Below the pieces are notes generated by a model. It was not told the DNA's origin, searched no databases, and was given only the letters and a program-made list of their open reading frames with translations. DNA of 64,000 bases, from the NCBI GenBank assembly GCA_951813565.1, contig OX638351.1:4128001-4192000 (forward strand). The letters run 5' to 3'. Of the stretch, positions 15,101 through 60,288 are shown in pieces (position 1 is the first letter of the stretch; every line of letters begins with the position of its first letter). This stretch comes from an uncultured Poribacteria bacterium (lineage in GTDB: Bacteria > Poribacteria > WGA-4E > WGA-3G). Position numbers and translations under genes: made by a program.

Positions 15101-15292
15101 TACAGTCTATCTCATAAATTGTTAAATACGGTTCCTTACACAGGATCTACATTCATCGTAGGGGCGGGTCCCCGGTGAATGCCAAAAGGCATTCGGACCG
15201 TTGATTTGGTGCCCGCCCATTGTTTACACTTATGAGAGAGATGGCGAGGCACAGAGACCTCGCCCTACAAATGATTTATGAGATACGCTCTA
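15101..15292. mobile_element. MITE with TA-bounded imperfect TIRs carrying an inverted GTAG-REP pair
   Basis: TACAGTCTATCTCATAAAT...ATTTATGAGATACGCTCTA; near-identical copy at 49906-50484, same ends at 59097-59277. Confidence 0.75.
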
Positions 15293-26540: not shown

Positions 26541-26889
26541 AATGTATCAGTTTAACACAAGATGGTTGGCGATTCAAGTATGATGTCTGCTAAGCACGCC
26601 TATAGGCAGATGTTCACCTATTTTTTTTCTAATATAATTCGGTTTGTTTAACATAAAATACACGTTAATATCAAATATTGAGTTATTTTGAAAATTAATT
26701 TGACTAATTTAGTCAGGTCTAGTATATTTATAATCATGTGTTCGGTAGAAACAATTTTTGGGAATTGGTCCGATGAATCAACGCCAAGTGCCATAAGACA
26801 CTTGGCGGGAAACCGAACTTATCGTGGTCGTAAGAGTAGAATTCAAAGCATAGAGAGCTTCATATCTCTTACACCGAACTGACGTTGTA

Positions 26890-28219: not shown

Positions 28220-28467
28220 CATAGGTGTCAACTTAAGAAAAAAATGATGGATTTTCTCTTGTGGGAGGGAAACTTTGTCCGCCCGATTTTGTGAGACTCA
28301 AACTGTTAAATCCAAATCAACGATGAATGCGCCTATGGCATTCATCCAAATCAACGCAGCATGCGCGTCCGACATGCTGCCAAATCAACGCTGAATGCGC
28401 GTGTAGGCATTCAGCGGGGTTGAAAACCCCTCCCACAAGAAGGTGTATCCTTAAGTTTACACCTATG
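28220..28467. mobile_element. IS4/IS231-like MITE
   Basis: TIR CATAGGTGTCAACTTAAG...CTTAAGTTTACACCTATG; relatives at 34007-34242, 38495-38764, 43770-43951, 49986-50354, 50574-50921, 59522-59796. Confidence 0.75.
28313..28415 (+). repeat. Tandem array of three CAAATCAAC-hairpin units (34, 34, 35 bp)
   Basis: Constant CAAATCAACG followed by three different stem-loops. Confidence 0.9.
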
Positions 28468-28729
28468 GGTAGAGTGAAGCGAAACCCAATTCAACCGTCT
28501 TGACAGTCCTAAAGAGTTGGGTTTCACTTATTTTCAGAAATATAGACCTCAAATGGGTCAACAACCTCTCTTTAGGGTTTGTTTTTATTGTCCATTTCCG
28601 TTCTACTTCACCGAATGGCATAGGCGCATTCGGTGTTGATTCCCTACCGGATTTATCAAACTCACGTTACATTAACGACTTGTGCCAGTTAACATTTTGT
28701 TTTGTTGGTTTTCACATATATTTGCATTT

Positions 28730-28915
28730 GTGCTATAAACATATCGTCCCTACCAAATCAACGCCAAATGCGCCAAATCAACGGTCCGAATGCCTTTTGG
28801 CATTCCCCGTATGGCATTTGGCGGGACTAAAGAGTGCTCGTCCAATCATTTTCTATAAACATATCGTCCCTACCAAATCAACGCCAAATGCGCTTATGGC
28901 ATTTGTCGGACTGAA
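28730..28915. repeat. Two REP-like CTATAAACATATCGTCCCTAC-GGGACT units, each with AATCAAC-hairpin insertions
   Basis: Compare the uninterrupted CTATAAACATATCGTCTCTACGAGACT at ~59689-59715. Confidence 0.8.
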
Positions 28916-29055
28916 GAACATATAAATATATGATAATGACTTACAAACATTTTCTTTTGTGAAATAAAGTTCTACATATGGTTATTTAGCACAACTCGTT
29001 ACACTAACAAACAACTGAGTAAAGAAAAACCTTTAACTTTCATCTTAAATTCCTC

Positions 29056-31675: not shown

Positions 31676-31935
31676 TATAGTGAAATCCATAATTTTTTGG
31701 ACATTCTGTTCTTATGCAGATTCAAACATACCATAAATATCCGAGGCGACAAGTCATGGCGAATACCACACGCGTATTCGCCCAAGTGCGCTTGGCGTTG
31801 ATTTGGCAATGAATTGCGCTTGGTGAATGCGCCAAATCAACGGTCCGAATGCCTTTTGGCATTCCCCGTATGGCATTCACATTAAACGCCGCTAACCTTA
31901 AGAATAATGTAAAGGTATTTTTAGATTTTACTATA
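31676..31935. mobile_element. TA-bounded MITE (IS630/Tc1-like ends) with nested hairpin units
   Basis: TATAGTGAAATCCA...TAGATTTTACTATA; same ends at 38989-39102. Confidence 0.65.
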
Positions 31936-33822: not shown

Positions 33823-34359
33823 GGGTGTGTGAAGTTTTTGTATAAATCCGCACAACTCCTATTGTAGGGGCGGGTCTCCGGGGAATGCCAAAAGGCATTC
33901 GGACCCGGTGAATGACTAAATGTCGTTCATACCGTTGATTTCTTGATTTAGTGCCCGCCCGTTGGATGGCACGTCCTGTGCAGTGGCGGGGCACAGAGAC
34001 CCCGCCCATAGGCGTCAATTTAAACACACAATTACCAGATTGCCTCTTGTGGGAGGGCTTTATAAGCCCGATTTATATGTATTTATCGGGGTTGAAAACC
34101 CGCCAAATGCCAAAAAGCGCATTTGGCGTTGATTTGGCAGCATGCCAAACGCGCATGCTGCGTTGATTTGGCAGCATGCCAAACGCGCATGCTGCGTTGA
34201 TTCACTCCCACAAGAGGGTATATCCTTAAATTGACGGCTATGGGGCACCAAATCAACGGTATGAATGCCTTTTGGCATTCCCCGGGACCCCGCCCTAAAG
34301 TGGAAAACGCCGCGTAATCATTGTAAATTGAACCTATGTAACCAAATATTTACACACCC
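33823..34359. mobile_element. Composite MITE with IS256-like ends, copy 1
   Basis: GGGTGTGTGAA...TTTACACACCC; 9-bp TSD CATTTCATA/CATTCCATA; contains REPs, an IS231-like MITE and hairpin units. Confidence 0.8.
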
Positions 34360-38313: not shown

Positions 38314-38917
38314 GGGTGTGTAAAGTTTTTGTAGAAATCCGCACAACTCCTATTGTAGGGGCGGGTCTCCGGGGAATGCCAAAAGGCATTCGGACCGTTG
38401 ATTTGGTGCCTGCCCGTTGCATGGCACGTCCTGCGCAGTGGCGGGGCACCAAATCAACGGTATGAATGCCTTTTGGCATTCCCCGGGACCCCGCCCATAG
38501 GCATCAATTTAAGCACACAATTACCAGATTGCCTCTTGTGGGAGGGCTTTATAAGCCCGATTTATATGTATTTATCGGGGTTGAAAACCCGCAGCATGCC
38601 ACACGCGCATGCTGCGTTGATTTGGACAAATGCCAAAAGCAGAATCAACGCCGAGCGCGCGTATGGCACTCGTCGCATTTGGCGTTGATTTGGCAGCATG
38701 CCATACGCGCATGCTGCGTTGATTCGCTCCCACAAGAGGGTATATCCTTAAATTGACGGCTATGGAGCACCAAATCAAGAAATCAACGGTATGAATAACA
38801 TTTAGTTATTCACCGGGTATGAATGCCTTATGGCATTCCCCGGGACCCCGCTCTACAGTGGAAAACGCCGCGTAATCATTGCAAATTGAACCTATGTAAC
38901 CAAATATTTACACACCC
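38314..38917. mobile_element. Composite MITE with IS256-like ends, copy 2
   Basis: Collinear with 33823-34359 but with different hairpin-unit content. Confidence 0.8.
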
Positions 38918-49905: not shown

Positions 49906-50484
49906 TACAGTCTATCTCAGAAATCGTTAAATACGTTTCCTTACACAGGATCTACATTCATCGTAGGGGCGGGTCCCTGTGCCCGTATAGGTGTCAATTT
50001 AAGAACAAAATTGCTAAATTTTCTCTTGTGGGAGGGAAACCTTGTCCGCCCGATTGAACGAGATTCAAGCAGAAAATCCAAATCAAGAAATCAACGGTAT
50101 GAACGACATTTAGTCATTCACCGGGTATGAATGCCTTATGGCATTCCCCGTATGGCATGCTGCCAAATCAACGCTGAATGCGCGTGTAGGCATTCATCCA
50201 AATCAACGCAGCATGCGCGTATGGCATGCTGCCAAATCAACGCTGAATGCGCGTGTAGGCATTCATCGGGGTTGAAAACCCGCCAAATGCCAAAAAGCGC
50301 ATTTGGCGTTGATTCACTCCCACAAGAGGATATATCCTTAAATTGACACCTATGGGGCGGGTCCCTGTGCCCGCCCATTGTTTCCACTTATGAGAGAGAT
50401 GGCGAGGCACCAAATCAACGGTCCGAATGCCTTATGGCATTCCCCGGGACCTCGCCCTACAAATGATTTATGAGATACGCTCTA
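49906..50484. mobile_element. Composite MITE: TA-bounded element > REP > IS231-like MITE > hairpin-unit arrays
   Basis: Same outer element as 15101-15292, interrupted at 49986-50354 with an exact 19-bp duplication. Confidence 0.85.
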
Positions 50485-50976
50485 GTGTTACTGAGAGTTT
50501 ATATTCTCCGTTAGTAAGTGTTTGCGAAACCCAACAATTGCCTATATGTGTCGGGTTTCGCTATCGCTCTACCCTTATGTGTCAACTTAAGGATTTTCCG
50601 AATATGAATAATGTTCTTGAATCCCATAGGGATGCTATGTTTATAGCACGCTGTAAAGCGCCTCTTTAGCACCAGCGGTGGCAGCAAGCGCGTGTGGCAT
50701 GCTGCATGAGGTGTATCCTAAACAAACATATACACCTTTCGCCCCTCTGGGGCTTTGTGAATGGGTGTTAAGACTGTTCTGGACACCTTTCGCCCCTCTG
50801 GGGCTGAAACACACTTAAAAATACAGGTTAATTTCCTTAAGTTGACACCCGTCAAATGCCACAAGCGCATTTGGCGTTGATTTGGCTGAATGCCATAAAG
50901 CATCCACAGCGTTGATTTATAGGTTTCGCTGCCGCTCTACCCAACGGACATTTATATTTGGATTTTATTATAGAAC

Positions 50977-52454: not shown

Positions 52455-52488
52455 AGGACGTTTCCTTAATCATTAGAACGGACATCAA

Positions 52489-52563
52489 TACACAACTAAA
52501 CACAAAGTTTCATTACACAACTAAACACAAAGTTTCATTACACAACTAAACACAAAGTTTCAT
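52489..52563. repeat. Perfect 3 x 25-bp tandem repeat
   Basis: TACACAACTAAACACAAAGTTTCAT x3, overlapping the stop codon of 52560-53774. Confidence 0.95.
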
Positions 52564-53774
52564 TTTTGTGACTCTTCAGGCGTTGCTAACACGTAGGCGT
52601 AGTTTTTTCCAACGGCTATGCTGATCGGATGTTGCTCCTGAAGTGTTGTAGCAGATATAAAACGATGTTTTGCTTGCGCATCGAGGTCAATAACAGAAAG
52701 AAAACCCTTTGCGTTTACTACGTAAAGCAAATTCTGAGAAATTTGGAAATCAGTGATCGGTCCTAATAGATTATTTTCTTCAATGTCTATTGTTTCGGAC
52801 CATTGGTCTTGCATGGCGAACTGAATCTTGTTTGAACGTTCAACATAAGCATCTGTAGGTTTTCCTCGGGTGAGCGTCTTTTTCCCTGTCAAGTAGAGAT
52901 AAGCGAGATAGTTCCCCTCTAAGTTGTAGTGTTCAAGCCACTCCCACATATAAGGACGAACTTGGTTCTTTCCCCAGACGATAGTAATATCGCGATTTGG
53001 ATATCTATAACTTATCAATACCAGATTGTTATCGGTAACGCGGACCTTCTCATATCTACCACTTATCTCTAAGAGGTCGGTTCTATCTGAAAGTGCTGCC
53101 CAACCAGGGTCAGTAGAGTGTCTATGCTGCATCAGAATCTGTTCTACTTCTGTTCCTTTAGCTCTAACACCTACTAACGATGAAGGAGATATTGTCCCAA
53201 CAGACTCAACGAATTGAGCATTCCCGTTGTCTAAGGAATAAATGTGCAGATAGTCATGGATATCCATAATATATAGGTAGGATTTATGGATATCGAATTC
53301 TCTTATTACGTTTGCCTGGTGTAGTTTCACCATAGATTGATTCACTGGTTGAAGTCGATTGGAAACGTCTACGAGATAAATCTTCTGCTTGCTTGCAACA
53401 TAAACATGATTTCCAGATACGCGTGCCTTACCGATTCTGTCGGGGAACGCTATTGATGCCATATATGATGGTTGTTGTGGGTTGGAAACATCAATGACGT
53501 GTAGATGATTTTCAGATGTGACATAAGCGTGTTTCCCTGAAAGGACAACATTGTTGTTTTGACTAACACGAAACGGTAGGTTGATAGAAGTCATGAGTGC
53601 TGGATTTTTCGGATCTGTCGTGTCTACAACCGTGAAAATGTTCTCTTGCGGTTTTGCCTCGGCAACCGTATTTTGACTCTGCTCAAGAATACTCAGGTTA
53701 CACCCAATATTAATAATTGCGATTAACGTTATTATGACAAAAGTATAAGTTGACTTTGCAAAATCTATTCGCAC
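52560..53774 (-). CDS. LVIVD-repeat beta-propeller lipoprotein
   Basis: Lipobox-like NIGC; HAYVT..LHVIDVSNPQQP-type repeats. Confidence 0.78.
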   Translation of the reverse strand: MRIDFAKSTYTFVIITLIAIINIGCNLSILEQSQNTVAEAKPQENIFTVVDTTDPKNPALMTSINLPFRVSQNNNVVLSGKHAYVTSENHLHVIDVSNPQQPSYMASIAFPDRIGKARVSGNHVYVASKQKIYLVDVSNRLQPVNQSMVKLHQANVIREFDIHKSYLYIMDIHDYLHIYSLDNGNAQFVESVGTISPSSLVGVRAKGTEVEQILMQHRHSTDPGWAALSDRTDLLEISGRYEKVRVTDNNLVLISYRYPNRDITIVWGKNQVRPYMWEWLEHYNLEGNYLAYLYLTGKKTLTRGKPTDAYVERSNKIQFAMQDQWSETIDIEENNLLGPITDFQISQNLLYVVNAKGFLSVIDLDAQAKHRFISATTLQEQHPISIAVGKNYAYVLATPEESQK

Positions 53775-59096: not shown

Positions 59097-59796
59097 TAGA
59101 GTGCATCTCATAAATCGGAATTTGTTGTTTCACTACGCTCAATCCAAGCCGTAAAATACTAATGCAAATGTCCGAGGCGCAATAAATTGCGCGACTACAA
59201 ACGCGTTTCTACTGAAGTAAACATTTCTTGAAGATCGCGTTTACAAAGCCCTCCCACGATTTATGAGATAGGTTGTAGTAGGCACACGCCGTGTGCCGTA
59301 ACCTTATTCAGGTAAAATGTAAGAGCCTCAATGAATTGCGCGACTACGAACGCGTTTCTTCCTAATTGCGATTCGGATAGATATACAATTATCGGGCTTG
59401 GAAAGCCCTCCCACAAGAATATCTATCACTAAATTGACACCAACGGTACGGTTAGGAAACCGCACCTACCAAGGCTGGAGAACTACTAAATTTGCACCTA
59501 TGGTAGCTAATGCGGAATACCCATAGGTGTAAACTTAAGGATTTTCCGAATATAAAAATGCTCTTCAGTCCCGTGAATCAACGCCAAATAAGCGTTTGGT
59601 ATTTGTCGGGGACGATATGTTGTCGTATCCATCTACCCATCAGAATATGTCGCTCCTACGGAGCTAAATAGGGGTGGTAATACATGGGCTATAAACATAT
59701 CGTCTCTACGAGACTAAATATGGGACAGTCTCAATAATCATGCGTATTTAGAGATGTTTACAATAACACAGATATTTTCTTAAGTTTACACCTATG
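59097..59796. repeat. Cluster of MITEs and REP hairpins
   Basis: TA-bounded element 59097-59277, IS231-like element 59522-59796, several GTAG/GTGG hairpins. Confidence 0.75.
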
Positions 59797-60163: not shown

Positions 60164-60288
60164 CTTTACGGTCTGTTTTTATTGTCCATTTCCGTTCTAC
60201 CCCACCGAATGCCGTAGGCGCATTCGGTGTTGATTCCCTACGGGATTTATCAAACTCACGTTATTCTTAAATTGACGGCTATGGGGAT

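Follow-up and report, generated by a model that had tools for sequence, protein, structure and literature searches.

What is a 34-base hairpin that recurs head-to-tail, mostly between genes and often inside other repeats, across a bacterial chromosome, and how does it reach its positions? The question is raised by a tandem array at positions 28313-28415 of a 64,000-nucleotide stretch (hereafter the window) from an uncultured Poribacteria bacterium, corresponding to positions 4,128,001-4,192,000 of a 5.43-Mb single-contig genome with 43% G+C; the public runs that contain this stretch come from sponge or sponge-metagenome samples. A prediction made from the letters of the window alone had described about 35 such units, each an AATCAAC leader followed by a covarying stem-loop, as an undescribed class resembling repetitive extragenic palindromes (REPs). 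Taken together, our results lead us to conclude, with a probability of roughly four in five, that the units form a family of mobile DNA elements that are very small, non-coding and non-autonomous. Within this conclusion, the mobility of single units into other repeats is well supported by filled and empty copies of the same sites, and at 34 bases the unit ranks among the smallest mobile DNA elements seen.

The canonical unit, here called A-type, is 34-35 nt long and consists of a variable 5' dinucleotide, the AATCAAC leader and a 9-bp hairpin with a 7-8-nt loop, while B-type units share the leader and continue with GGTNN and a 7-8-bp stem. The dinucleotide is set by the flank, being CA after C and TG or CG after G. 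When 20 units of the window are aligned, every leader is identical, the top of the stem (T-G-C / G-C-A) and three positions of the loop hardly vary, and the lower stem differs among subfamilies yet stays complementary. Pairing across the 9-bp helix holds in 92% of the cells of this alignment, as against 24-44% for slid registers, and the covariation that had been read by eye holds, with changes on both sides at seven of the nine stem pairs and a covariation score that none of 500 shuffles reached. Folded as single-stranded DNA (ssDNA), the units give a free 9-nt leader and a 9-bp hairpin (-7.8 to -10.5 kcal/mol, z -2.6 to -3.6), and a three-unit array gives three separate hairpins. At the second stem pair, C frequently faces T (GCC...GTC; 6 of the 20 window units and 27 of the 41 units of G023), a mismatch that could be a recognition feature resembling the bulge of Escherichia coli REPs; here and below, G000 is the genome of the window, and other G-numbers are related Poribacteria genomes. 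Stem subfamilies in G000 include GCAGCATGC (190 copies), GCCAAATGC (188), GGTATGAAT (157), GGTCCGAAT (58) and GCTGAATGC (45). A separate family of 116 copies shares the upper stem and loop of the unit (ATRCGC...GGYAT), has no AATCAAC leader and carries the 3' tail CATGATT; it lies mostly inside larger composites (e.g., G000:C1:143650, 502215 and 3743533), and a hairpin related to it is present in the window at 31821-31880.

The word AATCAAC is enriched: it occurs 47 times in the window, where 15.5 +/- 3.8 occurrences are expected and none of 100 shuffles reached 47, and its 2358 sites genome-wide place it at the top among the 105 permutations of the word. A census of the window yielded 27 clean units (17 A-type and 10 B-type) and about six more that are interrupted or nested, so that the earlier figure of about 35 was fair; all five stem pairs quoted with it are present, and the head-to-tail arrays lie where it had placed them, with Tandem Repeats Finder reporting periods of 34-35 at 28310-28413, 34107-34202 and 50149-50262 and direct reading of the letters identifying those at 38591-38726 and 50851-50919. 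The genome-wide count that had been proposed as a check gives 815 units in which a hairpin follows AATCAAC by a strict hairpin scan; strict patterns recover 521 A-type copies, 242 B-type copies and 58 of a related GCTAYRAAT-stem kind. Units are strongly intergenic, as 393 of 457 good units lie outside crude open reading frames (ORFs) even though these cover 83% of the genome, and the 64 that lie within them probably reflect spurious ORFs called across repeat clusters. One such ORF, of 141 aa, spans the repeat cluster at 28500-28925 of the window.

The evidence for mobility comes from cutting out each of the 815 units with 120-nt flanks and comparing it with the rest of the genome. For 187 of the 815, a copy of the host repeat exists elsewhere in which the left and right flanks are contiguous (1404 pairs, 83 distinct flank pairs), and junction refinement followed by the collapse of similar contexts leaves 51 independent contexts in which 25 or more of the 28 flank bases agree, 16 of them with agreement at 28/28. 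The missing piece measures 33-35 nt in 37 of the 51 and extends from 0-3 nt before AATCAAC (33/51 contexts) to the last base of the stem. In most clean events the junction can be shifted by no more than 0-2 nt, which leaves no room for a target duplication beyond 2 nt; these filled and empty pairs bear out both the residence of units within other repeats and, to within 1-2 nt of possible duplication, the claimed lack of a target-site duplication. One to six target bases are replaced in roughly half of the first-pass pairs, a recurrent case being the A of GT[A]GG in GTAG-tagged REPs.

The target logo, another check named in advance, has a G-run just 3' of the insertion point as its only signal (G at +1 in 35/51 contexts and at +2 in 28/51), and the left side shows no conservation. 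The right flank is a host hairpin stem in 15/51 contexts compared with 16% in shifted controls, a modest difference for which only perfect stems of at least 4 bp were counted. The dominant hot spot is the junction of tag and stem in a GTGG-tagged host repeat (GTGGGAG^GGGTTTTCAACCCC), which is filled in 92 copies, with six different stems, and empty in 44; the opposite foot of the same hairpin is also targeted, with 31 units directly 5' of it. The GTAG REPs that flank genes for REP-associated Y1 HUH transposases (RAYTs) in this genome are entered at GT[A]GG (18 filled, 231 empty). Units also occupy, in both orientations, loops and leaders of other units (in the window at 28754-28822, 31833-31867 and 38625-38692), and in one clean event a newer unit was placed between an older unit and the host hairpin.

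There are 64 arrays of 2-9 units, containing 162 of the 815 units, and internal units are preceded by CCA in 98 of 98 cases, that is, by the final C of the previous stem plus CA, whereas first units are preceded by CCA (25), GTG (18) or GCG (15), which indicates that the 5' dinucleotide depends on the flank. Of 98 neighbouring pairs, 21 share a stem where the pool predicts 30%, and 4951 of 5000 shuffles give as many or more; most arrays are thus not local duplications. Insertion is nevertheless not the sole origin of the arrays, since local duplication also occurs, as in an array of nine homogeneous units and in one with three repeats of a two-unit block. Copy-number proxies were also tried for the direction of array growth (first versus last unit, 15 versus 38) and were dropped because a recurrent two-unit composite confounds them.

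The family is widespread among close relatives and sparse beyond them. A covariance model of the unit, as had been proposed, matches in 24 of 24 same-genus genomes and gives one weak match among 16 genomes from other genera of the order. With the strict pattern, the copy number is highest in this genome (521), the other genus genomes all have matches (39/39, 2-375 copies each), the sister genus has them in 55 of 65 genomes (1-41 copies each), and genomes of other Poribacteria families hold 0-4 copies each, with 0-1 each for the reversed-pattern control. Among the genomes searched, the unit family is confined to one Poribacteria family. Within the genus, copy number ranges from 2 to 521, about 250-fold, and the dominant subfamily varies by species, GCCGAATAC being at the top in G010 and G023 and not among the common stems of this genome. 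Positions fixed across strains had been named as an objection to mobility; across species, 11 syntenic loci around groEL hold only one strong and one partial unit compared with many here, implying that unit positions are not fixed.

How such a unit might move can be framed from these properties. Only variants that keep the hairpin would propagate, and for this reason hairpin and leader are probably what a mobilizing machinery reads, most likely on ssDNA; as the element has no coding capacity, this machinery would act in trans. Units enter just 5' of a G-run, often the first stem bases of another repeat's hairpin, or in a hairpin loop, and repeated insertion beside one hairpin foot, together with some local duplication, would give rise to the head-to-tail arrays. 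REP-associated Y1 HUH transposases nick and join ssDNA at hairpin feet. We tentatively put forward a RAYT acting in trans as the leading candidate, though one that we consider less likely than not. It is favoured because HUH enzymes recognize a hairpin with a 5' tag and join ssDNA without target duplication, according to Messing 2012 (PMC3479197), and because GTAG REPs are among the targets and copy number leans toward RAYT-positive genomes (median of 61.5 units with RAYT versus 22 without among genus genomes, Mann-Whitney p ~0.001, kinship not corrected).

The complement of candidate enzymes in G000 can be described in some detail. Ten Y1_Tnp matches lie above the cut-off, and four of these belong to a 1.73-kb insertion sequence (IS) resembling IS605, with tnpA and tnpB (full copies at G000:C1:3744522-3746253, 228278-230009, 2158638-2160368 and 4319136-4320868); tnpB-only derivatives of 1.25 kb and 90-97% identity are present in at least 13 copies. 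The ends of this element are CCCCTACCTTTAGGTAGTGGG-type hairpins unrelated to the units, and on that ground it was rejected as their source. The original prediction had pointed to TTGAT, the ISDra2 target, in the reverse complement of the leader, but the IS605-like left ends lack TTGAT in the four full copies with a defined left boundary, and the 51 contexts contain no conserved left-flank word, so this target logic is not supported. Three further Y1 genes are RAYTs (132.5, 116 and 80.4 bits on NF047646, cut-off 80), and each is flanked in inverted orientation by hairpins other than the unit: a GTAG-tagged REP of the GTAGGAGCGAGCTCC type at the loci designated L010 and L009, and GGCGAGGTTTCCTAACCTCGCC at L008. 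An AATCAAC unit is found 65-110 nt upstream of two of the three RAYTs, on one side only, and the upstream unit at L010 is inserted in the RAYT's own REP. The L009 gene (1534-1968 on the minus strand, G000:C1:3549545-3550027) contains an in-frame TAG and is probably a pseudogene, whereas the RAYTs at 1420-1908 of L010 and 1402-1881 of L008 are intact. Directly downstream of the L010 RAYT, at 1905-2270 of that locus (G000:C1:242493-242858), there is a tandem array of about eight GTAG-type REPs (GTCGCGAGCTGGAG.. units with AAGAAAAAGACGGAAGA spacers) that reads through as two spurious ORFs of 100-118 aa. In the same-genus genome G009, about nine IS200-type tnpA copies (e.g., C1:783886-784240) are all split by one and the same in-frame TAG, located between profile positions 62 and 55; they would represent a pseudogene that is spreading or else a gene that is recoded or read through.

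Several observations weigh against trans-mobilization by a RAYT, and some against the reading of mobile units more generally. Across 26 RAYT loci of the genus, a unit lies within 1.5 kb in eight and units lie on both sides in none, so that the expectation of a transposase gene flanked by the units is not borne out for the RAYTs. RAYTs were found in 20 of 40 genus genomes, whereas units are present in all 40; G055 has 220 unit copies and no RAYT was found in it, and RAYT homologues occur in four genera without units (g3, g5, g6 and g8). Profile searches found no Y1_Tnp of any kind in G023, G001, G010 or G024. The single-contig G023, which is 92% complete, has a match to neither PF01797 nor PF00078 and yet carries 41 well-formed units, 38 of them with at most one stem mismatch, some in mixed arrays and inserted 5' of GGG (36 loci). 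The proposed HUH/RAYT mechanism is not established: the presence of a RAYT or Y1 gene does not clearly follow that of the units, and no enzyme is tied to them. The context-dependent 5' junction (CA, TG, CG or G) and the occasional loss of 1-6 target bases are untidy for a site-specific HUH reaction, and a replication-strand signature is uninformative, as the genome has no usable GC skew and the 815 units have no strand bias (422 plus, 393 minus). As for mobility itself, many of the filled sites may stem from a few composites that spread with the host repeat, making independent events far fewer than copies, and precise enzymatic excision would yield identical filled and empty pairs, although the units would be mobile DNA either way.

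It is possible, if on the whole improbable, that neither a Y1/HUH enzyme nor a reverse transcriptase takes part and that the 34-nt hairpin cassette is inserted in a structure-directed manner at the 5' foot of DNA hairpins, by another enzyme or by host replication and repair proteins. We consider this because G023 carries well-formed units and mixed arrays without a Y1 or reverse transcriptase match and because no RAYT is flanked by units. If true, it would add a new class to the mobile DNA of bacteria, one to which the small dispersed repeats (SDRs) of Nostoc would in principle belong as well.

Copy-choice replication without any dedicated enzyme would account for some of the same features, although we judge it unlikely. 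A 3' end would stall at the foot of a host hairpin, use 1-3 nt of microhomology to jump to another unit, or to a small nucleic acid whose ends are defined, copy one unit and return at the G-run. The position of insertion just before G-runs or hairpin stems fits such a process, as does the 3' end of the unit, ...GGC(G), which is usually followed by GGG and has the return microhomology built in; the flank-dependent 5' junction, the target bases lost in about half of the first-pass pairs and the persistence of units in genomes without a Y1 or reverse transcriptase match fit it as well. What speaks for a guided reaction is the near-constant 5' boundary and the uniform length of the insert given above, as an unguided process should copy variable lengths of source flank, and an invariant leader beside a covarying stem indicates sequence-specific recognition.

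A route through RNA, in which a small hairpin RNA is reverse transcribed from a nick at the G-run by target priming and joined imprecisely at its 5' end, would leave a precise 3' end at the G-run, a ragged 5' end and small target deletions, much as seen here, and G000 has RVT_1 matches at two or three places. We nevertheless regard it as very unlikely. RVT_1 is present in only 10 of 24 same-genus genomes and was not found in the complete, unit-bearing genomes G005, G017, G021 and G023, and no unit-flanked reverse transcriptase emerged, with only the genome-level presence of such genes looked at. In addition, 5'-truncated copies are rare: 348 of 480 hairpin cores have the exact leader, and most of the other 132 appear to be the separate 3'-tail family or other leaderless hairpins. 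Orientation to flanking genes is likewise unbiased, or weakly biased at best (108 co-directional versus 142 opposite).

Still less probable, in our view, is that the units do not move at all and are functional cis-elements, such as terminators, mRNA stabilizers or protein-binding sites, maintained by selection and spread by local duplication and gene conversion. Their intergenic location and the homogeneous or dimer-periodic arrays, which are the product of local duplication, would agree with this, and REPs elsewhere have been proposed to act in supercoiling, transcription termination and mRNA stabilization in the account given in PMC3733652. Selection on function does not readily explain the precise presence or absence of single units in 51 unrelated contexts, the nesting of units in each other's loops in either orientation, the lack of a gene-orientation bias and of a T-run after the hairpin, positions that are not conserved in 11 related species, or a copy number that varies 250-fold in one genus. 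An artefact of long-read metagenome assembly is a negligible prospect, since the family is present in all 40 genus genomes and in 55 of 65 sister-genus genomes from many assemblies and runs from four studies recover the unique flanks at >=99%, even though short-read contigs of four public runs break at the repeats and the arrays are not confirmed read by read. Joints that skip 35-37 nt are seen in public runs, with sides of only 19-30 nt that may derive from other genomic copies.

Returning to the reading of the units as mobile elements, we may ask what they most resemble. How hairpin repeats of the REP type, and smaller ones, spread is a question that has long awaited an answer, and REP doublets forming hairpins (REPINs) are thought to need both the doublet and a RAYT. 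The nearest kind is that of REP- or SDR-like miniature hairpin elements, and the closest published analogue, which the original prediction did not name, appears to be SDR4-6 of the Nostocaceae, a likeness that lies in behaviour rather than in sequence. In both cases a tiny repeat is placed precisely in other repeats without target duplication. Elhai et al. are said to have described, in 2008 in Genome Res 18:1484, SDR hairpins of 21-27 nt with compensatory stem changes, and to our knowledge no enzyme is known for the Nostoc SDRs or for CGTC REPs. The unit described here differs in being longer (34-35 nt), in its 9-nt single-stranded leader and in its G-run targets at hairpin feet, as well as in its host phylum (Poribacteria rather than Nostocaceae) and in the lack of highly iterated palindrome (HIP1) enrichment. 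Nostocaceae SDRs are described as roughly 20-nt, non-coding, dispersed, sometimes tandem and thought to be mobile (PMC2884548); SDR5 is reported to lie between the third and fourth bases of HIP1 (PMC4390886), and one source states that SDR-like repeats were not found outside Nostocaceae among HIP1-rich cyanobacteria (PMC5861425). A cyanobacterial origin of the units, or their identity with Nostoc SDRs, was rejected, as HIP1 is present in 50 copies, estimated at about chance level, and a Nostocaceae host was ruled out because the nearest GroEL relatives are Candidatus Poribacteria metagenome-assembled genomes at 82-91%.

With REPs, the units share the form of an extragenic hairpin of 20-40 bp with an unpaired, conserved tag at its 5' foot, a high copy number (815 units), lineage-specific subfamilies, a genome that contains RAYT genes, and a second-pair C.T mismatch that recalls imperfect REP stems. 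Work by Nunvar in 2010 reportedly dealt with tagged REPs and RAYT transposases. The tag, however, is AATCAAC, whereas REPs fall into GTAG- and CGTC-tagged superfamilies according to Di Nocera 2013 (PMC3733652). REPINs are presented as inverted doublets tied to a flanking RAYT (Bertels & Rainey 2011, PMC3116915), whereas here the single hairpin is what is present or absent. The arrays are head-to-tail, unlike the alternating bacterial interspersed mosaic elements (BIMEs), and, unlike in REPtrons, the units do not flank any RAYT; across genomes, RAYT presence does not clearly go with that of the units. Nor is there a CT at the unit boundaries, the dinucleotide at which E. coli TnpA-REP is described as cleaving (Messing 2012, PMC3479197). 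Elements of the IS200/IS605 group (IS608, ISDra2) are similar in combining a hairpin with an adjacent short motif, in the lack of target duplication and in a plausible insertion into ssDNA, but their two ends need different hairpins and they enter on the 3' side of a fixed tetra- or pentanucleotide, in contrast to one hairpin and a 3' G-run here. Miniature inverted-repeat transposable elements have the terminal inverted repeats of an IS and a target-site duplication, which differs from the junction overlap of 0-2 nt in most clean events and from a leader without an inverted partner. Integron attC sites were dropped because nothing beyond the hairpin is complementary to the leader, and CRISPR was dropped because the arrays lack unique spacers. 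Outside bacteria, yeast mitochondrial G+C-rich clusters and algal organelle palindromic repeats are hairpin elements of 30-50 nt with nesting and tandem arrays; these are organellar and unrelated in sequence to the units, and we know of no enzyme for either the yeast clusters or the algal (Volvox) repeats.

We found no description of such a repeat in the Poribacteria literature under REP, RAYT, MITE, palindromic or inverted-repeat subjects, and as far as the literature was searched the class is undescribed. The notion of an undescribed REP-like class that moves as single units into other repeats is thus upheld by its tag, which is neither GTAG nor CGTC, by the 51 filled and empty contexts and by this search, and only the HUH logic attached to it is not. 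The genome offers a clean natural experiment, with a 34-nt unit in hundreds of copies, at least 51 independent pairs of filled and empty sites whose junctions are resolved to the base, a dominant hot spot (92 copies filled, 44 empty), and 40 related genomes over a 250-fold copy range, and these data suffice for designing cleavage and strand-transfer assays with defined oligonucleotides and a comparative search for the responsible gene. For annotation, the units fill and fragment intergenic DNA, break short-read assemblies and spawn spurious ORFs, and should therefore be masked in Poribacteria genomes.

Within the window, the array that raised the question (28313-28415, plus strand) comprises three A-type units head-to-tail (28313-28346, 28347-28380 and 28381-28415) with the stems ATGAATGC, CAGCATGC and CTGAATGC, and it adjoins the host hairpin GGGGTTGAAAACCCC. 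On the minus strand, three A-type units at 34102-34204 (34171-34204 with a TG leader, 34137-34170 and 34102-34136) sit between GTGGGAG and GGGTTTTCAACCC of a GTGG-tagged host REP, and a lone A-type unit with a TG leader (50282-50316, minus) lies at the hot spot GTGGGAG^GGGTTTTCAACCC. The three-unit array at 38591-38726 (minus) has in the loop of its middle unit (38625-38692) a fourth unit in the opposite orientation (38641-38674, plus; AG + AATCAAC + GCCGAGCGC stem). Three further A-type units form the array at 50164-50267 (plus; 50164-50198, 50199-50232 and 50233-50267). A two-unit array lies at 50851-50919 (minus; 50885-50919 and 50851-50884), upstream of GGGTGTCAAC. Two copies of one host repeat carry an A-type unit at the same target: the first (28754-28822, plus, at GTCCCTAC^GGGAC) has its loop split by a 35-nt B-type unit (28774-28808), and the second (28874-28907, plus, at GTCCCTAC^GGAC) is uninterrupted. 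Another A-type unit (59574-59607, plus) stands in place of the A in GTCCCGT[A]GGGAC, and a divergent unit with one mismatch (TG + AATCAAC + GCCAAGTGC stem) is located at 26774-26806 (plus). The A-type unit at 28610-28643 (minus; GG + AATCAAC + ACCGAATGC stem) is fixed within a larger composite repeat, of which a second copy lies at 60204-60237 (minus); this leader-and-stem class numbers 27 copies genome-wide, with only one empty copy found.

Of the B-type units, one lies in the loop of a leaderless hairpin (31833-31867, plus; GGTGAATGCGC^GTATGGCATTCAC), one with a GAATGCC/GGCATTC stem after AATCAAC + GGTCC is in a GGGCAC^CGGGG.CCCGCCC host REP (15172-15208, minus), and one has the host GGGCAC^CGGGACCCCGCCC (34249-34285, plus). 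Three are nested in the leader of another unit, at 33905-33942 (minus; in another B-type unit, signature AATCAAGAAATCAAC, within a GTAGGGGCGGG host REP), 38779-38816 (plus) and 50087-50124 (plus), and the remainder are at 38369-38405 (minus), 38450-38486 (plus) and 50411-50447 (plus). No Rfam family matches the 64-kb window at gathering score. The window also contains, at 52485-52564, a perfect 25-nt tandem repeat of 3.2 copies with 98% matches (TCATTACACAACTAAACACAAAGTT) that is unrelated to the hairpin units.

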